The notes beneath the pieces were generated by a model. The model was given only the letters and a program-made list of their open reading frames with translations. It did not search any database and had not been told where the DNA came from. The position numbers were made by a program, and so were the translations under genes. Of a DNA stretch of 64,000 nt, positions 26,238 through 57,113 are shown piece by piece. The number at the start of each line of letters is the position of its first letter. Position 1 is the first letter of the stretch. This DNA is from Escherichia coli (GTDB lineage Bacteria; Pseudomonadota; Gammaproteobacteria; Enterobacterales; Enterobacteriaceae): NCBI RefSeq assembly GCF_045037415.1, contig NZ_CP173438.1, one strand, 5' to 3'.

Positions 26238-26522
26238 CATGACTCCTTGCTCATCGCATGAAGACTCCGAGAGTGAACCCCGTTAGAAAGGGTCACACGC
26301 ATGCCCCAATACAAAATTATTTGCTCGCCTCTATCGTTGCCATTTCATCAAAAGAAGAAAAGACAATGATAAAAAAGTTACAAATATGTTAATGAATAAA
26401 CCAAATTTATCCCGTAATTATATTACGCTGCAAAATCCTTACAATAAACAGGTTTTTATTGAGCAAATTTGCATTTTTCGACAGTGATCAATTTATAGCG
26501 AAATTGTCACGATCCCACCAAT

Positions 26523-26536
26523 TTGATCTACAACAA
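26523..26536. promoter_or_regulatory. FNR-like half-palindrome in cydA upstream region
   Basis: TTGATCTACAACAA, partial match to TTGAT-N4-ATCAA, about 290 bp upstream of the cydA start. Confidence 0.4.
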
Positions 26537-26574
26537 TTTATCGTGTTTTGCAGATTTTTTTCAAGAATTAAAAA

Positions 26575-26588
26575 TTGATTTATATCAA
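26575..26588. promoter_or_regulatory. FNR binding site in cydA upstream region
   Basis: TTGATTTATATCAA, perfect TTGAT-N4-ATCAA, about 340 bp upstream of the cydA start. Confidence 0.6.
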
Positions 26589-27744
26589 AATCAATCAGAT
26601 ATGTTAACCGCTCGTAAATCATGAATCATTGATGGGTTTGTTGTTAATAAATTGTAGCAAAATAACACAGTAAAACTACCCACATGGAAATATATAGATA
26701 AAAAACCAGTATTTTATTTAACAGAACCGCCTTATCGACTTTTTATAATACTAGTTAGTTAGAGTAGCTACTTTGTTGCCATTTTACATAACATATTTTT
26801 ATCAACGTTAATTGATTGTTGTCTTTATGAGCAACGTACTGTAAATCCGTCACTTATTGTTTCATTGGTAATAATCACAAGAAGAAATAGATACCTTAGG
26901 TATAGTCAGATGGAACAAGGATTTTCAAAATAAATTTATATGGTATTAATATTTCCCGATCTGTATTCAATGATTCGCTCAAAGATTGAAAATCAAGAGA
27001 AATTGTTATAGCAGTGATACGAGACAACAAAACGGAATGATTGCCAGCCGTTAGAAAACACCGGACACTCTCGTGTAAAAAGCTACCCTGTCTATGGATA
27101 TAGCGATATCGACTCATCAAGCGTGGACTGAATGATATTCAGCTCCATATGGGCGGCAACCTGGAGGATAAACATGATTTCGCCGTTGGAATCAAGGTTG
27201 TTCTGCAATATCTACCAGACTGCTTCAATTTATCTGTTTTGGAAGTGCAATAATCTTAATTTAACTATTTGAAGATGATGATATTGTCAGATGCCAGAAA
27301 TTTAGTAATCTGGAGAACCGTGTCTATGATCACTAAATATTAAAGTAATAGTCGTCAGTAACACATCGAGTGATATAACGTATTGACACCTAATCATATA
27401 AAAACAGATCGTAATTAAGCAGCATAAGAATATGTCTTATTATCATTAAAATACATTCTATTTCCATCATCCTTAAGATAATAAAACAGTGAGTGATGGA
27501 TAATTTCACCCCAAAAAAAAGCAAGCATATAAAATTAAAAAACATGACTCCACTTTCATTTTTATGAAATGGCATCGTGAAGAGGCGCCAGCCAATTATA
27601 AAGATCTTGCTCCTCAAAAAATGAAACAACTCAGCCTGAGATAATATTTTTGACCGAAGTTAACATTAAAAATGGTTAATAGTTTGCGCCTCTCACACAG
27701 GTCCAGGCAACTGCGTAACAGGCAAATCAAATTTTCGTAAACAG

Positions 27745-27770
27745 TGGGCATCATCAGATGCCCACAAAAT
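27745..27770 (-). terminator. hairpin downstream of the TPR-protein gene
   Basis: perfect 9-bp stem GTGGGCATC-tgat-GATGCCCAC just 3' of the stop; weak T tract. Confidence 0.45.
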
Positions 27771-27779
27771 ACAGCTGAT

Positions 27780-28973
27780 TTACATTTTCGTCTTTACACG
27801 TGCAATAGCTTCTTCATAAGAAGGCTTATTTTTTTCCGTATACGCCAGTTGATAATGCTGCAATGCTTCAGCATTCTGGCCCGAGGTTTCATAAATTTTG
27901 GCAATGTTATAATAGGAGTTGGCGCGCGTTGTCGCCGCATTTACCCCACTCGCTAACGAGATCGCTTTACGATTTGCCCAAATTGCTTCCGCTATGTTGC
28001 CATTTTTCTGATACGCCAGACCCAGGTTACTAAATGCCTGTCCGTAATTGCCGTCTAATTCTGTTGCCTGTTGGAAGAGTTGAATGGCTTGCTCAAGTTG
28101 ACCGGTTTTATAAACAGCTTCACCTTCGCGATTATATTTTCTTGCCAGTTGAGTATCTCCACTGTTTTGCATCGCAGGCGAAGCCGGAGCTGAAGAGTCC
28201 GTCGCAGGCATTATCACAGTGGCTAAATCCCTGACGTCTAATGTGGTGCCGTTAAAATTGGCGCTGGTAACAGAGTTGATATCTTCAAACTCGCCGTTTG
28301 GATTGAGTTTAAACACGGTCCAGATGTTCCCTCGTTTTCCTGCAGGGACACTATAACTACGTACCAGGGAGCTCCCTACATAAACAAACACTTTTGCCTT
28401 ACTGGCAGAGAGATAATTACTGTTGGGCAGCCCTTTATTGCTATAGTCCTGCACGGCATAGATGTAACTTTCACCAAAATGCTTTTTGCTGATAGTGACA
28501 GTTTCTGGTCCATAGCTATCCGTATCATCAACATCCAGATTGGCATCAGTTCCCTCTTTACTATCAAAATAGATATGTCCGCCAGGGAAGATCAAATGCG
28601 AATCAAGATCAAAAGGCTTTTCGCCCCAGCTCAAAACTACACGCATGCCATCCAGATTCGTCATCACCGGACTGATAGCATAAGTCATGCCAGCGCACGG
28701 ACATTTGACCACCAGATTGGAATACCCCTCTTTTTTGACGATTAATAGAGCATCTTTATTATCAGCAAATGAAGTCCCCAAACTAATGCTGCCCGAAGTA
28801 TTTGTGATACCAGAAACAGATTGTGCACCATTGCGTTGCAGCGTCACCGATGCCCCTTCAATGCGTTTATCTTTCACTGTCGCACTTAAAATATCAATGC
28901 TTACATCGGCGGCATAAGCACCTGCATTCATGCCCAACAGCGCGAGAGCAACTGGCAAAACAATTTTCTTCAT
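27780..28973 (-). CDS. secreted protein with C-terminal TPR repeats (accessory; not in K-12 as I recall)
   Basis: 397-aa ORF; Sec signal peptide MKKIVLPVALALLGMNAGAYA; C-terminal TPR-like repeats; AGGA RBS; visibly lower GC than flanking core genes. Confidence 0.75.
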   Translation of the reverse strand: MKKIVLPVALALLGMNAGAYAADVSIDILSATVKDKRIEGASVTLQRNGAQSVSGITNTSGSISLGTSFADNKDALLIVKKEGYSNLVVKCPCAGMTYAISPVMTNLDGMRVVLSWGEKPFDLDSHLIFPGGHIYFDSKEGTDANLDVDDTDSYGPETVTISKKHFGESYIYAVQDYSNKGLPNSNYLSASKAKVFVYVGSSLVRSYSVPAGKRGNIWTVFKLNPNGEFEDINSVTSANFNGTTLDVRDLATVIMPATDSSAPASPAMQNSGDTQLARKYNREGEAVYKTGQLEQAIQLFQQATELDGNYGQAFSNLGLAYQKNGNIAEAIWANRKAISLASGVNAATTRANSYYNIAKIYETSGQNAEALQHYQLAYTEKNKPSYEEAIARVKTKM

Positions 28974-29092
28974 GTATAAATCCTTTTTTTAATGAATGTA
29001 AGGTGGAAATTTCCCAGTTATTATTATCGTGTTAAAAGGTGAAAAAAAAGAAATAAGTACACTTTTCAGATTAACACCCACTCACCTTGAAA

Positions 29093-29116
29093 CAAAAAGG
29101 CCATCCGGAGATGACC
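29093..29116 (-). terminator. rho-independent terminator of the mngAB operon
   Basis: minus strand GGTCATC-tccg-GATGGCC followed by TTTTT, 55 nt after the mngB stop. Confidence 0.6.
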
Positions 29117-29170
29117 TGAACTTTCTGAGAAACGCTGTTTTTTCATGTGGTTTGCTTTATTACACACCAT

Positions 29171-43755: not shown

Positions 43756-44102
43756 CACACACCCCACACCACAACGAATCCATAAATCACGTAAACCACC
43801 AGTGCAACGACAATCACCAGTTGCAGCATCAGGCGCAAGGCCAGCGGTTTAACGTAGTCGGTCAACACCTGCCACATGCCGATCCAGGCATGGATCAAGA
43901 TAGAAAACAGCGCCAGCAGGGTGAACACTTTGGTGAACGCAGAGGCGAAGAAACCAATCCAGACTTCATATGTCAGCTCGCCACTGGTAGCGAAAAAACC
44001 GACCATATAAATGATGTAGAGCGTCAGGACGATAGCGGTAGCACGAACGAGGATGAAATCATGTACGCCATTGCGTCCTAATGCGGAGGCGTTGCTTACC
44101 AT
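43755..44102 (-). CDS. sdhD: succinate dehydrogenase membrane anchor subunit
   Basis: 115 aa hydrophobic protein. Confidence 0.97.
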
Positions 44103-44485
44103 ACGAGGACTCCTGCGAGAAGTGAAAGCACGACAGTAATAACAAAGGAGATTTTGGCGGAGCGTTTACCCGCTTCGAATGTTTCTTCCAGATAGCCAAA
44201 ATCCATCATCATGTGGCGAATACCTACGACGACGTGATATGCCAGAGCGGTAAGGATGCCCCACATGATAAATTTGACGAAGAAGCTGCCCATAATCGCG
44301 GAAGCTTGCTCGAAACCTTCAGGGGAAGAGAGGCTGGTACCCAGAAGCCACAGCAGGATGCCCACTGCAACAAAGGTGATCACACCGGAAACGCGATGGA
44401 GAATGGACGCTATCGCCGTGACGGGGAACCGGATGGTCTGTAGGTCCAGATTAACAGGTCTTTGTTTTTTCACATTTCTTATCAT
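44096..44485 (-). CDS. sdhC: succinate dehydrogenase cytochrome b556 subunit
   Basis: 129 aa; start at [15 protein letters not shown]. Confidence 0.97.
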
Positions 44486-45193
44486 GAATAACGCCCACAT
44501 GCTGTTCTTATTATTCCCTGGGGACTACGGGCACAGAGGTTAACTTTCTGTTACCAGGAGACGTCGGGATTTCCTTCCTCCGGTCTGCTTGCGGGTCAGA
44601 CAGCGTCCTTTCTATAACTGCGCGTCATGCAAAACACTGCTTCCAGATGCGAAAACGACACGTTACAACGCTGGGTGGCTCGGGATTGCAGGGTGTTCCG
44701 GAGACCTGGCGGCAGTATAGGCTGTTCACAAAATCATTACAATTAACCTACATATAGTTTGTCGGGTTTTATCCCGAACAGTGATCTGCGTCACGATAAC
44801 AACATTTATTTAATTTTTAATCATCTAATTTGACAATCATTCAACAAAGTTGTTACAAACATTACTAGGAAAAGCATATAATGCGTAAAAGTTATGAAGT
44901 CGGTATTTCACCTAAGATTAACTTATGTAACAGTGTGGAAGTATTGACCAATTCATTCGGGACAGTTATTAGTGGTAGACAAGTTTAATAATTCGGATTG
45001 CTAAGTACTTGATTCGCCATTTATTCGTCATCAATAGATCCTTTACCTGCAAGCGCCCAGAGCTCTGTACCCAGGTTTTCCCCTCTTTCACAGAGCGGCG
45101 AGCCAAATAACAAACGGGTAAAGCCAGGTTGATGTGCGAAGGCAAATTTAAGTTCCGGCAGTCTTACGCAATAAGGCGCTAAGGAGACCTTAA

Positions 45194-46477
45194 ATGGCTG
45201 ATACAAAAGCAAAACTCACCCTCAACGGGGACACAGCTGTTGAACTGGATGTGCTGAAAGGCACGCTGGGTCAAGATGTTATTGATATCCGTACTCTCGG
45301 TTCAAAAGGTGTGTTCACCTTTGACCCAGGCTTCACTTCAACCGCATCCTGCGAATCTAAAATTACTTTTATTGATGGTGATGAAGGTATTTTGCTGCAC
45401 CGCGGTTTCCCGATCGATCAGCTGGCGACCGATTCTAACTACCTGGAAGTTTGTTACATCCTGCTGAATGGTGAAAAACCGACTCAGGAACAGTATGACG
45501 AATTTAAAACTACGGTGACCCGTCATACCATGATCCACGAGCAGATTACCCGTCTGTTCCATGCTTTCCGTCGCGACTCGCATCCAATGGCAGTCATGTG
45601 TGGTATTACCGGCGCGCTGGCAGCGTTCTATCACGACTCGCTGGATGTTAACAATCCTCGTCATCGTGAAATTGCCGCGTTCCGCCTGCTGTCAAAAATG
45701 CCGACCATGGCCGCGATGTGTTACAAGTATTCCATTGGTCAGCCATTTGTTTACCCGCGCAACGATCTCTCCTACGCCGGTAACTTCCTGAATATGATGT
45801 TCTCCACACCGTGCGAACCGTATGAAGTTAATCCGATTCTGGAACGTGCTATGGACCGTATTCTGATCCTGCACGCTGACCATGAACAGAACGCCTCCAC
45901 CTCCACCGTGCGTACCGCTGGCTCTTCGGGTGCGAACCCGTTTGCCTGTATCGCAGCAGGTATTGCTTCACTGTGGGGACCTGCGCACGGTGGTGCTAAC
46001 GAAGCGGCGCTGAAAATGCTGGAAGAAATCAGCTCCGTTAAACACATTCCGGAATTTGTTCGTCGTGCGAAAGACAAAAATGATTCTTTCCGCCTGATGG
46101 GCTTCGGTCATCGCGTGTACAAAAACTACGACCCGCGCGCCACCGTAATGCGTGAAACCTGCCATGAAGTGCTGAAAGAGCTGGGCACCAAAGATGACCT
46201 GCTGGAAGTGGCTATGGAGCTGGAAAACATCGCGCTGAACGACCCGTACTTTATCGAGAAAAAACTGTACCCGAACGTCGATTTCTACTCTGGTATCATC
46301 CTGAAAGCGATGGGTATTCCGTCTTCTATGTTCACCGTGATCTTCGCTATGGCACGTACGGTTGGCTGGATCGCCCACTGGAGCGAAATGCACAGTGACG
46401 GTATGAAGATTGCCCGTCCGCGTCAGCTGTATACCGGCTACGCGCAGCGTGATTTTAAGTCGGATATTAAGAAGTAA
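45194..46477 (+). CDS. gltA: citrate synthase
   Basis: 427 aa starting [23 protein letters not shown]; divergent from sdhC across a 708-bp regulatory region. Confidence 0.98.
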
Positions 46478-46494
46478 AAATGACACCGACAAAA

Positions 46495-46519
46495 CCCTGC
46501 GTGGACACGCAGGGTTTTT
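46495..46519. terminator. shared hairpin terminator between convergent gltA and TRAP permease gene
   Basis: CCCTGCGT-ggac-ACGCAGGG followed by TTTTT on the plus strand and a shorter T-run on the minus strand. Confidence 0.7.
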
Positions 46520-46523
46520 AATT

Positions 46524-47834
46524 CTACACCAGCAGCAAAGATATTGCCGGAATATAGGTAATGACCAACAGAAGTAAAATAAGACTGATCAGTAATGGCA
46601 CCGCTTCACGCATAAATTGCCCGACAGAAACCTGTACGGTATTACATACCAGCAGCATCACCGTTCCGACAGGTGGTGATAACGTTCCTAACGATAAGTT
46701 GAGGATCATAATGATGCCAAAATGCACCGGATCAATGCCAAAATGAGCCACCACGGGTTTAAGTAATGGGACTAATATCAGCAGAATGGCACTACCTTCA
46801 AGGAACATGCCAAGCACCAGCAGCAATAGATTGATAATCAATAAAAAGACGTATTTATTATCGGTCAGAGAAGTTACAAACTCCGCAACCGTGATACCTG
46901 CCCGCTCAAGGGAAAATATCCAGCCCAGCGCGGCACTCGCCATAATGATTAACATGACCGATGCCGTGGAACGCGCCGTCTCAGAGAGTGCTGTAAATAC
47001 ATGGCTGATTTTCAGTTCGCGATAAATTACAAAACCAATAAACATTACCAATAATACTGCTACCGCTCCGGCTTCCGTTGGCGTAAAGATATTTGCCCGA
47101 ATACCACCGATAACCGCAACAATTAAGAACAGTGCTGGCCAGGCCTGCACCAGCGCCACTGACACTTCTTTCGGTTTTGGCCAGTGTTCGCTGGAAGGTT
47201 TTAAACCGCGACGAATAGCCACCAACCATACGGTAACGATCAACATGGCGGAGCACAGCAGACCTGGCAGGATCCCGGCCATAAACATGGAGCCGATGGA
47301 GACATCCGCCACCAGTCCGTAAAGGATCAGTGCAATACCCGGTGGAATAATTGGTGTAATCAGCGAACCACTTGCCGTTATCGCCGCCGCAAAGCCACGG
47401 GAATAACCTTTCTGTTCCATTTCCGGCACCATCATGCGCGATAACATTGCGGCATCCGCCAGATTTGAGGCACTGACACCGCCCATCATGGTACTGACCA
47501 GAATATTAGCCCCACCCAGGCCACCGCGCATTCTGCCAATCAACACGTTGGCAATTTGCAAAATACGCGCGGCAATACCGGTATAGCTCATTAACGTGCC
47601 TAATAAGATAAAAAACGGAATAGCTAACAGCGAAGGGGTTTGCGTCGTGGCAATCAAACGCTGAATTGCCACCATTAACGGCACATTTGAATAGCAAAGG
47701 AAGTAGGTCAGAATGCCGCAAAACATCGCCAGCCATACCGGCATATTGATAAATAAACAGACGAACATAAGCGGAATGATCATCAGCCAGTTATCCAGCC
47801 AGCTTCCCGCCAGTAATTCACTCAATGCTGTCAT
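46524..47834 (-). CDS. TRAP transporter large permease subunit (DctM family)
   Basis: 436-aa polytopic membrane protein; 1-nt overlap with upstream DctQ-like gene. Confidence 0.85.
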   Translation of the reverse strand: MTALSELLAGSWLDNWLMIIPLMFVCLFINMPVWLAMFCGILTYFLCYSNVPLMVAIQRLIATTQTPSLLAIPFFILLGTLMSYTGIAARILQIANVLIGRMRGGLGGANILVSTMMGGVSASNLADAAMLSRMMVPEMEQKGYSRGFAAAITASGSLITPIIPPGIALILYGLVADVSIGSMFMAGILPGLLCSAMLIVTVWLVAIRRGLKPSSEHWPKPKEVSVALVQAWPALFLIVAVIGGIRANIFTPTEAGAVAVLLVMFIGFVIYRELKISHVFTALSETARSTASVMLIIMASAALGWIFSLERAGITVAEFVTSLTDNKYVFLLIINLLLLVLGMFLEGSAILLILVPLLKPVVAHFGIDPVHFGIIMILNLSLGTLSPPVGTVMLLVCNTVQVSVGQFMREAVPLLISLILLLLVITYIPAISLLLV

Positions 47835-48295
47835 TATTCACCTTCTTTGCGTGGCGTTTTCTTGATCAGTTGTAAGGCAGTAAAACAGGCGACACCGATA
47901 GCGCCAACCGTGACGGCAATATCGATCCAAAACCAGGATATTTTTAATATTTGCGTGGTTTTAAAGGCTGTCCCGGCAGCTAATTTCCATGCTGACCAGG
48001 CCATGACCACCAGCAAAATAATAGACATCAGAGAGACTAAAAACGCTAATATACGTTGCCCGCGTGAAGTAAGTGCATCGGCTAAAAATGGAATCGATAA
48101 ATGGGTATTATCTCGTTCAGCAACAACCGCACCAAACATGACTACCCAAATCATTAATAAACCGGAAACCTCTTCTGTCCACTGTAATGGCATATGAAAA
48201 CAGTAACGCATTATTACCGCAGCAATGGTCATGATTACCAATATAAAGAGCGTTAATACCGCAGCAACTTCAATCATTTTCCCTAAAAGACGCAT
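47834..48295 (-). CDS. TRAP transporter small permease subunit (DctQ family)
   Basis: about 153 aa with 4 predicted TM helices; start set at MRLLGKM (GAGG RBS) rather than ORF-track start at 48331. Confidence 0.75.
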   Translation of the reverse strand: MRLLGKMIEVAAVLTLFILVIMTIAAVIMRYCFHMPLQWTEEVSGLLMIWVVMFGAVVAERDNTHLSIPFLADALTSRGQRILAFLVSLMSIILLVVMAWSAWKLAAGTAFKTTQILKISWFWIDIAVTVGAIGVACFTALQLIKKTPRKEGE

Positions 48296-48354
48296 AAACA
48301 CCTCTGCTCTTAACGGTCGGTGCCGAAACACCGACCAGTCCTTATGCCATGAAG

Positions 48355-49323
48355 TTATTTCAGCTGTTGCTGAATAGTGTCATACAAACCAGGGGTCCAT
48401 TCCGGGAATTGTTGATAGACTTTTAAGGCTTTTTCTTTGAAAGGGGCGACGTCAGGATAGATGATTTCCACGCCCTGCTCCTGCATGGTTTTCAACATTG
48501 TCGCATCCTGCTCAGTGGTAATTTTCTGGCTATATAAACCAGCTTCATACGCTGTCTGGTGAATAATATCTAACTGCGCAGGTGTCAGGGTACTGAAAAA
48601 CGCTTCGCCACCCAACCATAATGATGTATTGGTCAGATAGTTCACCATTGACAGATATTTCGCCTGCTCATGCAGCTTTTGCCCATAGAGAACAGAAACC
48701 GGGTTTTCCACACCATCGATCATCCCCTGAGTCAGCGCCGGATAAACATCTCCCAGCGGCATTGGTGTTGGGGTTGCGCCCATCGCTTCGATAGCTTTAA
48801 TCTGCATGACGTTATTCGGCACGCGGATCTTCATCCCTTTCAAGTCTTCAGGTGTACGAATCGGTTTTTTAGCAATGATCTGCCTGGTACCGTACAGATA
48901 GTTGCTCATGACAATATGCACACCTTTTTCCCGTAGTTTCTGTTCTTTTTGTTTAAACCAGTCACTGGCATAAATCGCAAACAGTTTCTGCGGATCTTCG
49001 GTTAAATAAGGCCCAAACAATATTCCCAAGTCTGCATCGTAGTCAGTTAAAAATCCTACATCACTGATGGTGATAATATTCATCCCCATCAACGCTTGTT
49101 CAGTAATATCTTGTTTAGAACCTAACTGTGAACTTGGGTAAAGTTCGAAAACAATATCTCCATTGCTTTTTTTCTTCACAAGTTCTGCCCAGTGCTTCAC
49201 TACTGTATCCGCTGGCTCGCCGGGGTTACTTTCATAGGCGATTTTGATAGTTACCGGTGCGGCATTCAGCATCGGACTAAATAAAGCTAAAAGAAATAAA
49301 AGTGGTGTCAGTAATTTTTTCAT
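48355..49323 (-). CDS. TRAP transporter periplasmic solute-binding protein (DctP family)
   Basis: 322 aa; signal peptide MKKLLTPLLFLLALFSPMLNA; DctP-like length and organisation. Confidence 0.85.
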   Translation of the reverse strand: MKKLLTPLLFLLALFSPMLNAAPVTIKIAYESNPGEPADTVVKHWAELVKKKSNGDIVFELYPSSQLGSKQDITEQALMGMNIITISDVGFLTDYDADLGILFGPYLTEDPQKLFAIYASDWFKQKEQKLREKGVHIVMSNYLYGTRQIIAKKPIRTPEDLKGMKIRVPNNVMQIKAIEAMGATPTPMPLGDVYPALTQGMIDGVENPVSVLYGQKLHEQAKYLSMVNYLTNTSLWLGGEAFFSTLTPAQLDIIHQTAYEAGLYSQKITTEQDATMLKTMQEQGVEIIYPDVAPFKEKALKVYQQFPEWTPGLYDTIQQQLK

Positions 49324-49350
49324 TATTATTACCTGTAAGAGCTTTATCGA

Positions 49351-50547
49351 TTAACGGGGATCTGCCCGACAGACTGCACTTTTGCTGTAATCAAATGCTT
49401 TATACGTTAAAACAAACTCCTGATGTTCCAGTCGTTCTGCGGCACAATATTGACCGTTGGCGACATGTTCAATCACCTGCATAATATCGTCTGCAATATC
49501 GTCGAGCGTTGCGCCTTCGCTAATTACACGACCGGCATTAACGTCCATATCGTCAGATAAATGCTCCCACGTCTGCGGGTTATTACACACTTTAATAATA
49601 GGAGCGATCACTGAACCAATAACTGAACCGCGACCTGTGGTAAATAACACCATATGACAGCCAGAGGCGATAAGTTCCAGTGCTTCTGAGGAATCGTTAA
49701 TATTCGGATACCCAAAACGAGGTTCACCATCAGGCACCACGTCCATCAACCAAAGCCCAGGAAAGGGCGTTTGTTGCGTCGGCAAAATAACGCCAGCAAT
49801 CAGCGCATCGCCCGACTTGGTATAAGCCCCAAGGGATTTTTCTTCCTGAGTGGTTAAGCCGCCTTCAGCATTACCGTTAGAAAAACTCCCCAGCCCCATC
49901 AAACTGTAATAACGTTCGGCTTTTGTCATTGCCACTTCGATGGCATCACGTGCCTGCGAACTAGCCGCGCGCGACATCATATGCTGCTCACAACCAAGCA
50001 ACTCACCGCTTTCTTCAAAAATACAGGTAGCCCCTTTCTCCAGCAGTTGGTCAAAGGCACGTCCTACTGCCGGGTTACCCGTGATACCACTGGTGCCATC
50101 GGAGCCACCGCAGATAGTACCAACCACCAGGTCGCTCCAGTTCAGGATACAACGCGGTGTATCCGCAAGCTGTTCCAGCATTTCAGCGACCAACTGCTTA
50201 CCCAGAGTAATGGTGTTGGTCGTGCCTTTATTTTCCTGAATGACCAGCGTATGGCACGGTCGCCCACTTTCTCGTACTTCTTGCTCCAGCCGACGGCGAT
50301 CGAAATTCTCGCACCCCAGCGAAATAATCAGTACACCACCTACGTTGCTATGAGTCGCCAGATTTTTCACCAGCCGATAGCCATAATCGCTGGGATAACA
50401 ACCTGAAAAACCAAAATACTGCACGTCGTGACAAGGAAATCCTTCGGCAATCTTTTTAGCGACATGGCTGGCACACTCCACCATAAAGATTACCTGCACA
50501 GTATTACGAATACCTGGTCGACCATTTTGCCGTACATAACCTTCCAT
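49351..50547 (-). CDS. UxaA/GarD-family sugar-acid dehydratase, large catalytic subunit
   Basis: 398 aa resembling the C-terminal catalytic domain of altronate/galactarate dehydratases; start overlaps stop of upstream SAF gene. Confidence 0.75.
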   Translation of the reverse strand: MEGYVRQNGRPGIRNTVQVIFMVECASHVAKKIAEGFPCHDVQYFGFSGCYPSDYGYRLVKNLATHSNVGGVLIISLGCENFDRRRLEQEVRESGRPCHTLVIQENKGTTNTITLGKQLVAEMLEQLADTPRCILNWSDLVVGTICGGSDGTSGITGNPAVGRAFDQLLEKGATCIFEESGELLGCEQHMMSRAASSQARDAIEVAMTKAERYYSLMGLGSFSNGNAEGGLTTQEEKSLGAYTKSGDALIAGVILPTQQTPFPGLWLMDVVPDGEPRFGYPNINDSSEALELIASGCHMVLFTTGRGSVIGSVIAPIIKVCNNPQTWEHLSDDMDVNAGRVISEGATLDDIADDIMQVIEHVANGQYCAAERLEHQEFVLTYKAFDYSKSAVCRADPR

Positions 50548-50858
50548 TATGCTTTTTCCTCTGACTGATAGCCGGCATCATCATGATGAAAAATGGCGAT
50601 GGCATTGCTGGCAAGATTATGGGAATGCACATGTTCACCCATGGCAATATCGCGAGTGGCGTGTCCGATAATGGCGCCGTATTTCAGAATCGAATCACCA
50701 TTGTTCAGCGCTTCGCAGGCCAGTTTGTGCCCCAGGGTAACGGAACTACAGGCCACCATTTCCCCCTCATCCCACCAGACAATATCGCCACTGGCGATGT
50801 CATTCAGCGCGACTACACAGTTATCTTTGGCATGTAGCTTTAACGCACGTTTGCGCAT
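50547..50858 (-). CDS. UxaA-family dehydratase small subunit (SAF domain)
   Basis: about 103 aa from MRKRALKLHAKDNCVVAL with perfect GGAGG RBS; ORF-track start at 50963 judged an over-extension. Confidence 0.7.
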   Translation of the reverse strand: MRKRALKLHAKDNCVVALNDIASGDIVWWDEGEMVACSSVTLGHKLACEALNNGDSILKYGAIIGHATRDIAMGEHVHSHNLASNAIAIFHHDDAGYQSEEKA

Positions 50859-50872
50859 AATTCCTCCGTACA

Positions 50873-51628
50873 TCAGAAGCCGATCAATGCGCCGCCATCC
50901 ACCACCAGCACCTGACCACTGACAAACGCCGCTGCGTCTGAAGCCAGATAAACCGCAGCCCAACCGATATCCTCCGGCTTGCCGAATTTTTTCATCGGGG
51001 TACGACCCAGGATTTTGTTACGGCGTTCGTCATCACCTTCAATGGCCTTACGCAACATTGGTGTATCGATCCAGCCTGGCGCAATACCATTGACGCGAAT
51101 CCCATGAACGGCAAGCTCCGTGGTCATACCGCGAATCATGCCGAGATAGGCTGACTTCGCTGCGCTGTAGCCAGTAACCAGAGGCTGCCCAAGAAATGAG
51201 GTCATCGATGCAGTAAAAAGCACACAGCCTTTACCGCGTTGTTTCATATGCGGCACCAGCGCTTTGGTTAACGCAAATGCGCCGACTACGTGAACGTCGA
51301 GTACTGACTCAAAATCACTGACGCTCATCTCTTCAATCGGTTTTTTGCAGTGATTGCCTGCGTTATTGACCAGGATATCGATAGCCCCGTGTTCGCTAAT
51401 AAGCACATCAACTTTTTCCTGCGCGGCTGCGGTATCCCCGACATCCATTTGTATCCAACTGGCCTGCGACCCCAATGTTCCGGCGGTCGCTTGCGCCAGC
51501 TCGCCGTTCAGGTCAGCAATAATGACCTTCGCCCCGCTGACTATCATGCATTTCGCCATTGCCAGCCCCAGCCCACTGGCTGCACCGGTGATCAACGCGG
51601 TTTTGTTATGTAAAGAAAAAGCATTCAT
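50873..51628 (-). CDS. short-chain dehydrogenase/reductase, KduD/IdnO-like
   Basis: 251 aa; TGAASGLG cofactor motif and YSAAK catalytic motif. Confidence 0.85.
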   Translation of the reverse strand: MNAFSLHNKTALITGAASGLGLAMAKCMIVSGAKVIIADLNGELAQATAGTLGSQASWIQMDVGDTAAAQEKVDVLISEHGAIDILVNNAGNHCKKPIEEMSVSDFESVLDVHVVGAFALTKALVPHMKQRGKGCVLFTASMTSFLGQPLVTGYSAAKSAYLGMIRGMTTELAVHGIRVNGIAPGWIDTPMLRKAIEGDDERRNKILGRTPMKKFGKPEDIGWAAVYLASDAAAFVSGQVLVVDGGALIGF

Positions 51629-51639
51629 GGTGTCGCTCC

Positions 51640-52653
51640 TTAAAGGTCAATGAGGATTTTGGTATACGCGCCGGGATCACTTGCCCAGTCGCTAAAAGCG
51701 TGATCAGCCTGTTCCAGCGGGTAGTGAGCACTCACCAGATTGCTGACCGGATAACGCCCGGACTCCATCAATGCCAGCACGGCACGAAAATCCGCCACGG
51801 TGGCATTGCGCGAACCACGGATATCCAGTTCTTTCATCAGGAACTGCGCACTCTGATAACTCACTGGCTGTTTGGCGTAACCGACATAAACCACACGACC
51901 GCTAAACGCCACCAACCCTGTAGCCTGTTCAATGGTTTGTTGATTACCCACCGCTTCAATCACCACTTCCGGGCCGCGACCGTCATTTAACAGCACCAGT
52001 TCTGCCGCCACGTCACATTGCTGCGAATTAAGAAAACGTTGCGCACCGCATTCCAGGGCAATGTTCCGCTTGCGATCATCAATATCGATAGCAATTACGC
52101 GCGCCCCCATGGCGGATGCCGCGGCGATAGCGCCAAGGCCAATTACCCCACAACCGATAACTGCGACCCATTCACCCACATTAATTTGCGCACGTCTGGC
52201 CGCATGTAGTCCCACGGCCAGCGGTTCTACCAGCGCTAACTCATCAACACTTAAGGCATTACAGACAATGACTTTATGTGCAGGCATCGTCAGTTGTTGC
52301 GCCATCCCCCCCTGACGTTGCACACCAAGAGTTTGGTTGTTTTTACAGGCGTTAGGACGACCGCTCAGACAGGAGCTGCACACGCCACACTCAGTGCAAG
52401 GCAGAACGACCACCCGGTCACCTGGCTTGATCGCCCCTGCCATATCGCCAGTTGCCAGCACCGTGCCGCCAATTTCATGCCCCGGAATACAGGGATAATT
52501 AACCAGCGGATTTAGTCCCCGCCAGGTATTGAGGTCAGAACCACACAGTCCGACACGCTCAACATTGATTAGCACTTCTCCTTTACCGCAGACAGGTTCG
52601 GGGATATCAACAAATCGCGCCTGACTTCCCTGCTCAATGGTTAATGCCTTCAT
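51640..52653 (-). CDS. Zn-dependent medium-chain polyol/sugar-acid dehydrogenase
   Basis: 337 aa; GHE catalytic-Zn motif, structural-Zn Cys cluster, GxGxxG Rossmann motif. Confidence 0.85.
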   Translation of the reverse strand: MKALTIEQGSQARFVDIPEPVCGKGEVLINVERVGLCGSDLNTWRGLNPLVNYPCIPGHEIGGTVLATGDMAGAIKPGDRVVVLPCTECGVCSSCLSGRPNACKNNQTLGVQRQGGMAQQLTMPAHKVIVCNALSVDELALVEPLAVGLHAARRAQINVGEWVAVIGCGVIGLGAIAAASAMGARVIAIDIDDRKRNIALECGAQRFLNSQQCDVAAELVLLNDGRGPEVVIEAVGNQQTIEQATGLVAFSGRVVYVGYAKQPVSYQSAQFLMKELDIRGSRNATVADFRAVLALMESGRYPVSNLVSAHYPLEQADHAFSDWASDPGAYTKILIDL

Positions 52654-52665
52654 TCATTGCTCTCC

Positions 52666-53352
52666 TTACATTACGCCGAAGGTTTCAAAGGCCTGTACCG
52701 TGCTCATGCCATCACTGATGGCTTTGCGCACTTCACTTTCAGTTGCCACTTTTTCCAGGGCCTGGGTAATAACTTCTTTCTCAACAACCTGGGGAATAAT
52801 CAGTAATCCGTCACGATCACCAAACACGATATCGCCCGGATTCACTCGCACGCCGTGAAATTCAATAGGTACGCCGAAGTCGATGACCTTGCCGCGCGGA
52901 CCTTGATCCTGTGCGTAAGTGCCATGACAAAAAGTGGGAAATTTCAATTCAAGAATTTCAGCAGAGTCACGGGCGTAACCATCGAGTACCGCACCTGCTG
53001 CTTTCAGATGCATGGCACGGGTAGACATCAACCCGCCCCACAAGGCATAGCGCAGAGAGCTGCCCGTAGTGATGTAAACATCGTTCTCTTTGAGGGCATC
53101 CAGCGCTTCAAACATGATGCCAAACGGTTTTTCGCCAATCGCCGTCTTACCCGACGTCGATTTGGTTTCGTAAACGTCCGACTCCAGCACCGGCATTGCC
53201 CGGCCTGCCACCACCGTATTCACATCCAGCGGCTTGATTGCCGGAGAAACAAACTGGTGCATATAGCCCAGCGTGTCGAGAATATCGCCAACCACGGCGG
53301 TAAATAGCCGGGTTTTCATCAAAGCAAAAAGTTCGTTATCACTCTTCCACAT
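52666..53352 (-). CDS. RraA-family protein, putative class II 4-hydroxy-2-oxoacid aldolase
   Basis: about 228 aa from MWKSDNEL (ATG with AGGA RBS); RraA-like fold inferred by recall; first gene of the operon. Confidence 0.6.
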   Translation of the reverse strand: MWKSDNELFALMKTRLFTAVVGDILDTLGYMHQFVSPAIKPLDVNTVVAGRAMPVLESDVYETKSTSGKTAIGEKPFGIMFEALDALKENDVYITTGSSLRYALWGGLMSTRAMHLKAAGAVLDGYARDSAEILELKFPTFCHGTYAQDQGPRGKVIDFGVPIEFHGVRVNPGDIVFGDRDGLLIIPQVVEKEVITQALEKVATESEVRKAISDGMSTVQAFETFGVM

Positions 53353-53361
53353 TATTTTCGT

Positions 53362-53390
53362 CCTGTAAGCCTGTTTAACAGGTTTACAGG
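53362..53390. promoter_or_regulatory. nested inverted-repeat candidate operator
   Basis: CCTGTAAGCCTGTTTAACAGGTTTACAGG: two CCTGT arms then two ACAGG arms; inner tGTttaACa fits GntR-type GT-Nx-AC; 10-38 bp upstream of the first operon gene. Confidence 0.5.
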
Positions 53391-53615
53391 GTAAGGAGAA
53401 AAAGCGCACAATACTGCGAAGGGCGTCACGAAAAAGTTGTGTATTTACTATTTCTTCGCCACTCTTTCACACAATATGTCTTTGATTCGCACTGCATGGC
53501 GGGCGCACAGGCGCAGTAGTCTATTGATAATCAAGGGTTCTGGAGGAAAATATGAAGGATACAGTCCCGGTATTCTGGATTTCACCGACCAGGAAAAAGT
53601 ACAACAGGAGTAAAA

Positions 53616-54329
53616 ATGAGTGAGAGTGCGTTATTGACCAGCGTAACGTTATCGTCACAGGTCAAAAATCATATTCTTAATCTGATCGCCGAACAAAAAT
53701 TGACACCGGGGATGCCAGTTCCCAGTGAAGTTCAGCTGATTCAGAAATTGGGTGTCAGTCGGGGTATTGTGCGTGAGGCCTATCGTTCACTTGCCGCCCT
53801 GGGGATTCTGGAAACGCACAGCGGTAAAGTGCCACGAATCAAAAAATTTGATGATGAAGTGCTGCGCGTGGTGTTTGGATTTGCCCTGGCGACCGAACAA
53901 GTGACAACAGAGCAAATTCTTCAAGTACGCCGCTGGCTGGAGTTGGGCGTTGTGGAAGCTGCTGCCCGTAATGGCGAAGAGGAAGATTTTGCTAACCTAC
54001 GGGCTGAAATGGCAAAAATCCGCGAACAGTTCAATGATGTTGAAAGCTTTATCACCCATGATATCCGCTTCCATCAGTTACTTGCCGTTGCCTCAAAAAA
54101 TCCGCTTTTTATGATGTTATTGCAGGCATTACATCAGCAGTTGCGGCAATCCATCCAGGAGGGTTTAAACGCCCAAAGCGATCAGAAAGAGTATGGCAAT
54201 CACATCATCACACTACACCAGAAAATCTGCGATGCTGTGTGTGCCAGGGATGTCGAAACGGCGACTCAAGCCATGAAATCACACTTCGACAGCCCGGTCA
54301 GTGCACTGATCAATAATTCCTCGTCATAA
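53616..54329 (+). CDS. GntR-family (FadR/FCD subfamily) transcriptional regulator
   Basis: 237 aa; N-terminal HTH (KLGVSRGIVREAYRSL), C-terminal all-helical FCD-like domain; divergent from the catabolic operon. Confidence 0.85.
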   Translation: MSESALLTSVTLSSQVKNHILNLIAEQKLTPGMPVPSEVQLIQKLGVSRGIVREAYRSLAALGILETHSGKVPRIKKFDDEVLRVVFGFALATEQVTTEQILQVRRWLELGVVEAAARNGEEEDFANLRAEMAKIREQFNDVESFITHDIRFHQLLAVASKNPLFMMLLQALHQQLRQSIQEGLNAQSDQKEYGNHIITLHQKICDAVCARDVETATQAMKSHFDSPVSALINNSSS

Positions 54330-54508
54330 GACTTATCTCAGTTCAATCGTTTACTCTTCCCTCTTTTACAAACGAGAGGGAGACAACGGTACTTAATACG
54401 CCCTTTAGCCAAAATCTGTCTTTTTCTTGATTACCGCTATTTTTTCGTTGAGGCGCATTCTTTATGCTGTATCGATACACCAAAGGTAAGTTAAACAGGG
54501 AGTGACGG

Positions 54509-55555
54509 ATGCCAGTGCTACAGTGGGGAATGTTATGTGTTCTGTCACTTCTCCTTTCTATTGGCTTCCTCGCTTTACATCTCCCGGCGGCACTCCTGCT
54601 TGGCCCGATGATCGCGGGGATCATCTTCAGTATGCACGGAGTCACTCTGCAACTTCCCCGCTCCGCTTTTCTCGCTGCCCAAGCCATTCTTGGCTGCATG
54701 ATTGCACAAAACCTCACTGGTTCGATTCTCACCACGCTGGCCGTCAACTGGCCGATCGTGCTTGCGATTTTACTGGTGACGCTGCTTTCCAGCGCCATCG
54801 TGGGTTGGTTATTGGTGCGCTATAGCTCACTGCCTGGGAATACCGGGGCCTGGGGTTCTTCTCCTGGCGGCGCGGCGGCAATGGTCGCAATGGCGCAAGA
54901 TTACGGCGCAGATATTCGCCTGGTGGCGTTTATGCAATATCTGCGAGTGCTGTTCGTCGCAGGAGCCGCTGTTCTGGTCACCCGCATGATGCTGGGCGAT
55001 AACGCTGAAGCGGTTAACCAGCAGATCGTCTGGTTCCCGCCAGTGAGCATTAATCTCCTGCTTACGATTTTGCTCGCGGTCGTTGCCGGTACGGCGGGAT
55101 GCTTGCTACGTCTTCCTTCCGGCACGATGCTCATCCCGATGCTGGCGGGCGCAGTGCTCCAGTCTGGTCAGCTCATCACGATTGAACTCCCGGAATGGCT
55201 GCTGGCGATGGCATATATGGCAATTGGCTGGCGGATTGGTCTTGGTTTCGATAAGCAAATATTACTGCGGGCATTGCGCCCGCTACCGCAAATCCTGCTG
55301 TCGATTTTTGCTCTGCTGGCTATTTGTGCGGGCATGGCGTGGGGGCTGACCCGGTTTATGCATATTGATTTTATGACCGCCTACCTCGCCACCAGCCCCG
55401 GCGGGCTTGATACCGTGGCGGTCATCGCCGCAGGGAGCAATGCCGATATGGCGCTCATCATTGCGATGCAAACCCTGCGCCTGTTCAGTATTTTGCTGAC
55501 GGGGCCTGCCATCGCACGGTTTATTTCAACCTATGCGCCGAAGCGTTCGGCCTAG
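54509..55555 (+). CDS. abrB: AbrB-family membrane protein
   Basis: 348-aa polytopic membrane protein; position next to nei as in K-12. Confidence 0.9.
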
Positions 55556-56343
55556 TGCTGGCAGCCTGGGCACCAGTAAAACGGGCGCGATGACAGCGTG
55601 GTTTTCTCAATGATGCCGCCACAGCGTTCGCAAGGTTCGCCATCACGATGAAAAACCTTAAAGCGAAACAGCGCCCCATGATATTTGTTTTCATCCACCT
55701 GCCCCCGCGTAGCGTAAGAAAGTCGCGGAATATCCAGTAACGCGTGTGCGAGTGCATCCAGTTGCGGCGCATTGAGATCTTTCGCTTTATGATTTCCGGT
55801 CAACCCAACCTGCCAGAGGATCTCCACCCGCAAATAATTGCCAAGTCCTGCCAGAAACGCCTGATCGAGCAGTAATCCAGCAAACTGACGGTTACGAAAG
55901 CGCGGCGACAATAATCGTTCCTTTACCACCTCCGGCGTCAGATTCGGATCCAGCACATCGGGACCAACGCGTTGTAAAAACGGATGCGTGGTCAGTTGTT
56001 CCGGAGTCAACATCTCAATATCCGAGGCGCTATAAAGCAGAATGGTTTTGTCAGCCGTTTGCAGTTTTACCCGCAATACTCGCGTGGTCTGCGGCTCTTC
56101 GCCGGTATCAACCACGCGCCAGACGCCGTAAAGCTGATTATGGCTGTAGAGCGTTAAGTCGTTGGAAAAATGAGTTAACAACGCCTTACCACGCGTTTCC
56201 ACATGGGTAACGTGTTGACCGATAAGTCGTGATTGATAAGATTTTAACTGCGGGAAGGCAAACCAGACATCAGTTAGTGGTTTGCCTTTGATCGCCGCCT
56301 CCAGGTTATCCGCTGCACGGCGGATCTCCGGGCCTTCAGGCAT
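55552..56343 (-). CDS. nei: endonuclease VIII
   Basis: 263 aa starting [14 protein letters not shown]; C-terminal zinc finger CPGCQ. Confidence 0.97.
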
Positions 56344-56378
56344 GGTGATATCCTTTTTTCATTCTTTATTAAGCGGGG

Positions 56379-57113
56379 TTATGCTGCGACAACAATCCCC
56401 TTTTCAGCAAATGTAGCTCGTAATCGGCGGGCGAACGCCAGTGCGTGCTCGCCATCGCCATGTAGGCAGACCGTTTGCGCCGTGACCATTGCCCATTCGC
56501 CGGTGATACTTTTGACTCTGCCGTGTTGCACCATCTCCAACGTTTGCGCCAGCGCCTGTTCTTCGTTTTCAATCAACGCGCCTGGCTGGCTTCGCGGCAC
56601 CAGCGAACCGTCTGCCTGATAACCACGATCGGCAAACACTTCCTCGCGCGTTACCAGGCCATATCGTTCGCCTGCACGAATCAGCTCGCTTCCTGCCAGC
56701 CCGACGAGAATCAATGCCGGATCGCAAGCGTATACCGCTCTGGCGATAGCGTCTGCCAGTTGTGCCTCTTTCGCCGCCTGGTTGTATAACATGCCGTGCG
56801 GTTTGACATGACACATTACGCCGCCTTGCGCACGGGTAATCGCTGCCAGCGCGCCAATTTGATACAGCGTCTGGGCGAAAATGGTTTCTGGCGGCAGCTG
56901 CATGGCGCTGCGACCAAAATTTTCCCTGTCGGGAAAACTCGGGTGAGCGCCAATCGCGACACCATTTTTTATTGCTTCACGCACGCAAGCCTGCATGGTT
57001 TGCGCATCTCCTGCATGAAATCCACAGGCAATATTGGCAGAGGAAACCAGCGTTAATAGCTCTGCGTCGCTGGCGCAGCCTTCGCCCAGATCGGCGTTCA
57101 GGTCAATTTTCAT
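56379..57113 (-). CDS. pxpA: 5-oxoprolinase subunit A (LamB/YcsF family)
   Basis: 244 aa; third gene of pxpBCA. Confidence 0.93.

Follow-up and report, generated by a model that had tools for sequence, protein, structure and literature searches.

A 64,000-nucleotide stretch of Escherichia coli DNA (contig NZ_CP173438.1; hereafter the window) carries between gltA and abrB a tight eight-gene operon (46524 to 53352, minus strand) with a divergent regulator gene. By sequence, the operon proteins belong to the TRAP (tripartite ATP-independent periplasmic) transporter, UxaA/GarD dehydratase, short-chain dehydrogenase/reductase (SDR), medium-chain dehydrogenase/reductase (MDR), and RraA-like families, and none of them is the equivalog of a characterized member. 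With moderate confidence, we favor a reading in which the operon takes up sugar acids of the L-galactonate type and cleaves them to pyruvate with no kinase involved. It would then work like the Ashwell pathway's L-galactonate branch, but with non-orthologous proteins at three points and another end step. The operon together with its regulator, here termed the cassette, is old Escherichia DNA that has been lost from most E. coli.

Gene content of the gltA-abrB locus

The gene set was taken from the open reading frames (ORFs) of the window and from RefSeq's annotation of strain 1437, an identical genome, which agree with each other, and the products were assigned to families by NCBIfam and Pfam searches. 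Read in the direction of transcription, all on the minus strand, the operon encodes a RraA-like protein of 228 amino acids (aa) (52666 to 53352; Pfam PF03737), a Zn-dependent medium-chain dehydrogenase of 337 aa (51640 to 52653), an SDR oxidoreductase of 251 aa (50873 to 51628), the small SAF-domain subunit of a dehydratase (103 aa; 50547 to 50858; Pfam SAF PF08666, E = 5.8e-11), its UxaA/GarD-type large subunit (398 aa; 49351 to 50547; Pfam GD_AH_second and GD_AH_C), and three TRAP components. These are the periplasmic solute-binding protein DctP (322 aa; 48355 to 49323; NF037995, 175 bits against a cut-off of 50), the small permease DctQ (153 aa; 47834 to 48295; Pfam PF04290, E = 4.7e-29), and the large permease DctM (436 aa; 46524 to 47834; TIGR00786, 390 bits against a cut-off of 268). 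Successive genes are spaced by 12, 11, 14, −1, 27, 59, and −1 nt, the two negative values being 1-nt stop/start overlaps of the SAF and large-subunit genes and of DctQ and DctM. The start of DctQ is identical to that in RefSeq, and the starts of the RraA-like and SAF-subunit genes, which are shorter than the longest ORFs, were set by the N termini of homologues. An earlier note on this DNA had described the same eight co-directional genes and a divergent GntR/FadR-type regulator, and had remarked that neither a kinase nor an aldolase of the KDPG (2-keto-3-deoxy-6-phosphogluconate) type is encoded; ORFs, RefSeq, NCBIfam, and Pfam all agree with this description, and the absence of both enzymes fits a non-phosphorylative end step.

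The regulator gene (53616 to 54329, plus strand) encodes a FadR/GntR-family (FCD) protein of 237 aa with NanR/LldR/GlcC-like NCBIfam matches below the cut-off, presumably a local repressor. A divergent gene for a GntR regulator with an FCD domain also accompanies the orthologous operons of Serratia, Sodalis, Citrobacter, and Succinivibrionaceae. The 263-bp promoter/operator region between operon and regulator (53353 to 53615) shows 94.9 to 98.9% conservation among E. coli and E. whittamii. The sigma-70-like matches in it are all weak, promoter and terminator scans stayed at the level of shuffled sequence, and the intergenic regions of nine orthologous loci yielded no palindrome or GntR-type motif as an operator.

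Predicted route from L-galactonate to pyruvate

The substrate, the order of the steps, and the aldolase reaction proposed here are predictions from homology and gene context. DctPQM would take up L-galactonate and possibly its 6-deoxy form, L-fuconate. The LgoD-like Zn-dehydrogenase would oxidize C5 to give D-tagaturonate, which the SDR would reduce to D-altronate; the two enzymes, a pair resembling IdnD/IdnO, would together invert C5. The two-subunit UxaA-type dehydratase would then form 2-keto-3-deoxy-D-gluconate (KDG), and the RraA-like protein would serve as a Mg-dependent pyruvate aldolase of class II, cleaving KDG to pyruvate and D-glyceraldehyde with neither KdgK nor Eda. Because no phosphorylation at C6 would be needed, the same enzymes could in principle handle L-fuconate; 6-deoxy sugar acids of this type cannot be processed by the standard phosphorylative route. 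Use of L-fuconate is a speculation prompted by the binding-protein homologue and the kinase-free design.

The predicted ligand of the transporter, L-galactonate and/or L-fuconate, follows from homologues and gene context. In the PDB, DctP has 85 DctP-family matches at E ≤ 1e-10, among them 4OVT (E = 1.3e-142) and 4O8M (E = 7.8e-81), which were reportedly solved with L-fuconate and L-galactonate. DctP also shares 73% identity with the TRAP binding protein of a variant E. coli lgo locus (tsr-DctMQP-antiporter-lgoR-lgoD-opgB; e.g., NZ_CP074863.1, 786981 to 803028), in which DctPQM and a Na+/H+ antiporter gene next to lgoR-lgoD take the place of lgoT. Complete E. coli genomes with this variant number 863, UTI89 and Shiga toxin-producing strains among them. 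A 72%-identical binding protein occurs in the same arrangement in Citrobacter farmeri (opgB-lgoD-lgoR-DctPQM), and orthologues of 65 to 68% identity are found within GntR-ZnDH-DctPQM-UxaB-UxaA loci (ZnDH, Zn-dehydrogenase) of Castellaniella and Salipiger; identity to the binding proteins of LgoD-UxaB-UxaA loci is 65 to 72%. A TRAP transporter with dual L-fuconate/L-galactonate specificity was reported as characterized in an earlier study (PMC5507952), and the same paper calls the Halomonas TRAP system non-orthologous to the characterized one.

A version of this enzyme module with a major facilitator superfamily (MFS) carrier instead of the TRAP transporter is found in Serratia, Sodalis, and a few E. 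coli, and the Serratia/Sodalis carrier is closest to LgoT (31%, 203 bits). The E. coli cases, GCA_031701865.1 and a Logan contig, both labeled E. coli, contain a Serratia-like module (a GntR gene divergent from RraA-MFS-ZnDH-SDR-SAF-UxaA) between aceBAK and metA, with a RraA-like protein 77% identical to that of the window.

Among the characterized enzymes compared, LgoD of K-12 is the best match of the Zn-dehydrogenase (35%, 184 bits, versus 25% to IdnD), which falls within the polyol-dehydrogenase group of the PDB and is predicted to be an L-galactonate 5-dehydrogenase. It is a paralogue of LgoD, since nearly all E. coli have lgoD itself at another locus. The SDR shares 38% identity with K-12 IdnO, a 5-keto-D-gluconate reductase. 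Its PDB neighbors (FabG, gluconate 5-dehydrogenases, KduD, and steroid dehydrogenases) all score 130 to 170 bits and do not settle its function. Its identity to SDRs of Bacteroidota UxaC/UxaA/UxuA loci is 41 to 46%; in some of these the SDR gene lies directly 3' of UxaC, and the order RraA-UxaC-SDR-transporter-UxuA-like is that of the Wocania, Labilibacter, and Maribellus loci. An orthologous operon of Citrobacter amalonaticus (RraA 75%, SDR 77%, split UxaA) has UxaC and lacks the Zn-dehydrogenase. D-Tagaturonate is formed by UxaC from D-galacturonate and by LgoD from L-galactonate, so the module shared by these operons should start at tagaturonate. The SDR would then be a tagaturonate (5-keto-aldonate) reductase and the dehydratase a D-altronate dehydratase.

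The large subunit of the dehydratase is 28% identical to K-12 UxaA and matches the GarD structure 6U7L at E = 2.7e-31, and the SAF subunit is 44% identical to the N terminus of K-12 UxaA. The SAF, GD_AH_second, and GD_AH_C domains are thus all present, spread over two polypeptides. What the earlier note had called a split UxaA-like dehydratase is indeed encoded by two genes, and it is better described as a conserved two-subunit enzyme than as a broken gene, the split being kept in Serratia, Sodalis, Citrobacter, and Bacteroidota. A frameshifted uxaA pseudogene was rejected on the grounds of this conservation and of the translational coupling of the subunit genes. Cysteines C25, C50, C79, and C146 of the large subunit are invariant in 14 orthologues, in keeping with the four conserved cysteines proposed to hold iron in the UxaA/GarD superfamily (PMC6336799). 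The enzyme is not an equivalog of altronate or galactarate dehydratase (TIGR03248, 162 bits versus a cut-off of 731) and constitutes a distinct UxaA/GarD subfamily with a predicted substrate. At two loci in metagenome-assembled genomes of rumen Bacteroidales/Prevotellaceae, a gene for an enolase-superfamily dehydratase lies between the SAF and large-subunit genes.

The assignment of the last step depends on the RraA-like protein. Its PDB matches include 3NOJ, 1J3L, and 2C5Q, and in its motif G107-X20-R128-D129-X2-E132 the residues R128 and D129 are invariant and E132 nearly so; the catalytic motif was reportedly worded G-X20-R-D-X2-E/D by Mazurkewich in 2014. The corresponding R123 and D124 of the Pseudomonas putida aldolase are enolate-stabilizing and metal-binding residues, and homologues with the catalytic motifs are considered likely class II pyruvate aldolases (PMC5065237). 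The window protein does not reach the HMG/CHA aldolase equivalog models (TIGR02798, 53.5 bits versus 304.5; NF006731, 60.7 versus 179). It belongs to a subfamily with 7751 database relatives at E ≤ 1e-10, in which identities of 61 to 82% extend across Proteobacteria and Bacteroidota.

We clustered the neighbors in 80 loci of this subfamily and counted KDG-forming enzymes within 6 kb. Such an enzyme is encoded beside RraA in 43 of the 80 loci: a split UxaA in 14, often with GH28 pectinases, UxaC, and an ExuT-like carrier; UxuA-like dehydratases in 15, with either UxaC and SDR or SDR and lactonase together with a sugar porter; a bona fide UxuA, whose gene overlaps that of RraA by 4 nt, in 9 from Ensifer/Rhizobium; and KduI with a KduD-like SDR in 5. 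RraA adjoins five KDG-forming routes (split UxaA, UxaC-SDR-UxuA-like, lactonase-UxuA-like, bona fide UxuA, and KduI/KduD). Among the same loci, KdgK occurs in 3, Eda in 1, and a UxaB-type reductase in none. Because KDG is common to the neighbor sets and its cleavage is the missing function, we assign the RraA-like protein as a predicted KDG aldolase. That the subfamily as a whole is a previously unrecognized class II KDG aldolase replacing KdgK and Eda is a tentative proposal. If true, pathways for hexuronates, mannose, and L-galactonate would share a widespread end step that needs no kinase, and E. coli of sequence type 131 (ST131) and of phylogroup-F-like lineages could grow on 6-deoxy sugar acids such as L-fuconate. 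Comparative genomics offers a testable function for a very large subfamily annotated only as "RraA family protein."

Other recurrent neighbors of the subfamily are a trio found with RraA in 12 to 19 of the 80 loci: a CoA-transferase of family III, an enoyl-CoA hydratase, and an SBP_bac_1-like protein of 380 aa that has no ATP-binding cassette (ABC) transporter partners. The last has no NCBIfam match and carries a precomputed Pfam label SBP_bac_1/SBP_bac_8. The trio sometimes lies inside sugar-oxidation operons and fits no known pathway. A further recurrent neighbor, of 139 aa, gave no NCBIfam or Pfam match.

Known systems and alternative readings

The closest parallel is the K-12 L-galactonate pathway (LgoT, LgoD, UxaB, UxaA, KdgK, and Eda), with the same predicted substrate and the intermediates tagaturonate, altronate, and KDG. 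The two share a LgoD-related Zn-dehydrogenase and a UxaA-family dehydratase. In the window, however, all steps are encoded in one operon, a TRAP transporter stands in for the MFS carrier and the SDR for the mannitol-dehydrogenase-family UxaB, the dehydratase is split, and the RraA-like protein takes the place of KdgK and Eda. The L-idonate pair IdnD/IdnO likewise acts on C5 of an aldonate, Zn-dehydrogenase first and SDR second, via a 5-keto intermediate, but its product is phosphorylated by gluconate kinase, whereas that of the window pair would be dehydrated, and the Zn-dehydrogenase is remote from IdnD (see above). In the Lgo/Lfo loci of Halomonas and Chromohalobacter (PMC5507952), an L-galactonate/L-fuconate TRAP transporter is accompanied by LgoD, UxaA, and "UxaF," an altronate oxidoreductase predicted to be non-orthologous; these loci use KdgK/Eda or a FAH hydrolase and have no RraA-like gene. 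The catalytic RraA-like, HMG/CHA-type class II aldolases have the same PF03737 fold and conserve the essential Arg-Asp pair and the acidic residue three positions on. The match is nevertheless weak (33 bits), the window context is one of sugar acids rather than aromatic compounds, and KDG has no C4 carboxylate or methyl group. The earlier note did not recognize the route as a described E. coli pathway. Our literature search found no publication on the cassette, the pathway, or its link to RraA, except for that on FlDet (below), and the TRAP cluster of the BEN2908 paper differs from that of the cassette; the chemistry itself is recognizable as a variant of the L-galactonate/hexuronate lower pathway.

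Several observations weigh against the L-galactonate route with a terminal KDG aldolase. About 37 of the 80 loci have no KDG-forming enzyme within 6 kb, and the CoA-transferase and enoyl-CoA hydratase genes present in many RraA loci are not explained by it. The adjacency of RraA and SDR in many loci suits consecutive steps better than the proposed order. Identities of 35% to LgoD and 38% to IdnO are too low for a transfer of specificity, and most E. coli already carry lgo genes, so that a second route brings no obvious benefit. No aldehyde dehydrogenase or glycerate kinase that could take up the glyceraldehyde was found at the loci. Finally, among RraA-fold enzymes only FlDet is known to use a 2-keto-3-deoxy sugar acid as substrate, and it is a dehydratase/decarboxylase rather than an aldolase (PMC8563752).

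The adjacency of RraA and SDR is better accommodated by an alternative that we regard as unlikely, though the best of those considered: an L-fuconate route of the Xanthomonas or "route III" type, ending in pyruvate and L-lactate. The two-subunit UxaA would dehydrate L-fuconate to 2-keto-3-deoxy-L-fuconate, the SDR would oxidize C4, and the RraA-like protein, in place of a FAH-family hydrolase, would cleave the resulting 2,4-diketo acid; the role of the Zn-dehydrogenase would be confined to a side branch for L-galactonate. Such a route is in keeping with the nearest binding-protein structure, 4OVT, reportedly solved with L-fuconate. So are the joining of LgoD, UxaA, SDR, and hydrolase with the Lgo/Lfo TRAP system in Halomonas, the association in Snuella of a RraA paralogue with split UxaA, MFS carrier, and alpha-L-fucosidase, and a fused FAH-RraA protein family in NCBIfam. 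A heteromeric UxaA/GarD-type L-fuconate dehydratase has been predicted in Paraburkholderia, and in the FucD/"route III" systems a dehydratase, in some cases of UxaA/GarD type, is likewise followed by an SDR and a C-C cleavage to pyruvate without a kinase (PMC6336799). Those systems, however, use a FAH-family hydrolase and no RraA-like protein, and the window adds a LgoD-like enzyme and a TRAP transporter. Moreover, every architecture would be left one step short, the UxaC loci without a keto-uronate reductase and the lactonase loci without a sugar 1-dehydrogenase, and the exchange of UxaC for LgoD in orthologous operons suggests that the node they share is tagaturonate rather than fuconate. 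We know of no RraA-fold enzyme that hydrolyzes diketo acids.

It is still less probable that the RraA-like protein is a FlDet-like dehydratase/decarboxylase and that the operon runs oxidatively via an aldarate to alpha-ketoglutarate semialdehyde rather than forming pyruvate. FlDet, a RraA-family enzyme of Flavobacterium sp. UMI-01, turns 2-keto-3-deoxy-D-glucarate into alpha-ketoglutaric semialdehyde (PMC8563752), and thus provides a precedent for this fold acting on a 2-keto-3-deoxy hexose acid in polysaccharide catabolism; galactarate dehydratase GarD also belongs to the dehydratase family of the operon. The window protein, however, is only 29% identical to FlDet and falls in another NCBIfam subfamily (PRK08245, 84 bits versus a cut-off of 208, with 341 for FlDet), and its predicted reaction differs. 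The operon has no alpha-ketoglutarate semialdehyde dehydrogenase, and KDG supplied by neighboring UxuA, UxaC, or KduI enzymes has no second carboxylate to lose. That the RraA-like gene encodes a regulator of RNase E, as the family's namesake E. coli RraA, an RNase E inhibitor, might suggest, or that the operon is an inactive remnant, is hardly credible given the conserved catalytic motif, a score of 42 bits to RraA proper against a cut-off of 136, the first position of the gene in catabolic operons of many phyla, and nine cassette ORFs that are intact and 98 to 100% conserved in 660 genomes.

Distribution and history within Escherichia

A megablast search with the cassette core (47000 to 53300) against 5426 complete E. 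coli genomes found the cassette in 663 of them (12%), always chromosomal and in single copy, and full-length in the 660 genomes just mentioned. It is at least 99% identical in 546 genomes, among them one labeled O25b:H4-ST131; the window cassette is identical to that of genomes labeled O25b:H4-ST131, and by this measure the window is ST131-like. In 114 further genomes, from bird, dog, cat, sheep, and human isolates, identity is 98.3 to 98.5%; of these, IMT16316 and HB42 have an unchanged gene arrangement. The two allele classes of E. coli differ by 1.5 to 1.7%. In a single genome, strain FXCREC145 (NZ_CM135823.1), the cassette is interrupted by an insertion of ISApl1 (IS30-like).

In K-12 MG1655, as the earlier note stated, ybgD-ybgQ-ybgP-ybgO lie between gltA and abrB, and the cassette is absent from this locus. 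The distribution survey that the note had called for shows ybg DNA in 4763 of the 5426 genomes, 4161 with the full operon and about 600 (e.g., strain A25) with a ybgO remnant only. As 663 and 4763 sum exactly to 5426, cassette and ybg to all appearances are mutually exclusive and exhaustive within E. coli proper. As a metabolic trait, the operon is fixed and lineage-defining. Of the 663 carriers, about 546 fall in the class of at least 99% identity that includes the ST131-identical sequences, and the absence of the operon from K-12 and most other E. coli makes it a candidate niche or colonization factor. Within E. coli, ybgDQPO itself is unusually divergent, with 77 to 100% nucleotide identity to K-12; the ybg genes of O157:H7 and O78 are about 78% identical to those of K-12, far more divergent than the flanking gltA, pointing to diversifying selection on the fimbrial genes or to their replacement between lineages.

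The same note had spoken of alternative cargo, a description that holds for E. coli proper and fails for the genus. When one genome of each species was scanned, three further Escherichia genomes proved to carry the cassette, E. whittamii, E. albertii, and L015, and in all three it lies side by side with ybg genes. L015 is labeled E. coli, but its flanking genes are 8 to 13% divergent, and we take it to be a cryptic clade. The order is gltA-cassette-GntR-ybg genes-abrB in L015, which has ybgDQPO, and in E. albertii, where ybgD fell below the 60% identity filter; in E. whittamii it is abrB-GntR-cassette-ybgOPQ. Cassette and ybg thus occur in either relative order among Escherichia species, with gene orientations kept. 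The window junctions fit both orders. On the gltA side (gltA, 45194 to 46477, plus strand), the 46 bp between the convergent gene ends (46478 to 46523) are 85 to 86% homologous to the gltA-DctM junction of E. albertii and L015. On the other side, the spacer between GntR and abrB (54330 to 54508; abrB, 54509 to 55555, plus strand) is as a whole 97.6% identical to the E. whittamii junction, and its abrB-proximal ~120 bp (about 54420 to 54539) are 82% homologous to the K-12 ybgO-abrB spacer.

In E. albertii, E. whittamii, and L015, the divergence of the cassette runs parallel to that of the flanks, with no discordance. Nucleotide identities to E. albertii are 82 to 89% for the cassette genes, 85 to 86% for the flanking nei/pxpA/pxpC, and 90.7% for gltA; those to E. 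whittamii are 92 to 96% for the cassette genes and 90 to 92% for the flanks. Because its divergence tracks that of the flanking core genes, the cassette is old, vertically inherited Escherichia DNA that was differentially lost and has been deleted in most E. coli. A single deletion separates each of the K-12 and ST131 states from an ancestor with both modules, and a difference between K-12 and pathogens that resembles an island swap is accounted for by differential loss from this ancestral locus.

A recently acquired genomic island that displaced ybg in ST131 and a few other lineages is, by comparison, highly improbable. It would account for the restriction of the cassette to 12% of complete genomes and its exclusivity with ybg, for a G+C content of the TRAP genes (43 to 48%) below that of the surroundings, and for the occurrence of related modules elsewhere, in Serratia at other loci and in rare E. 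coli at aceB-metA. But the earlier note saw no integrase, tRNA, or flanking direct repeats, and our checks agree: the ORF list and RefSeq annotation show no integrase or transposase ORF at the locus, no tRNA lies in 44000 to 57000, and no flanking repeats exceed chance matches of 14 to 25 nt. The cassette also occupies the same locus, beside ybg, in E. albertii, E. whittamii, and the cryptic clade, its divergence equals that of the flanking core genes, and two E. coli allele classes exist. Horizontal gene transfer as an island was rejected on these grounds.

A second lineage-variable islet of the window lies between cydA and mngB, where positions 26240 to 29170 include about 2.1 kb of extra DNA with a gene for a 397-aa TPR-repeat protein (27780 to 28973, minus strand). 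In K-12, this interval is an 846-bp spacer only. The extra region is full-length in 1104 of the 5426 complete E. coli genomes, with identities of at least 99% in 563 and of 90 to 95% in 545.

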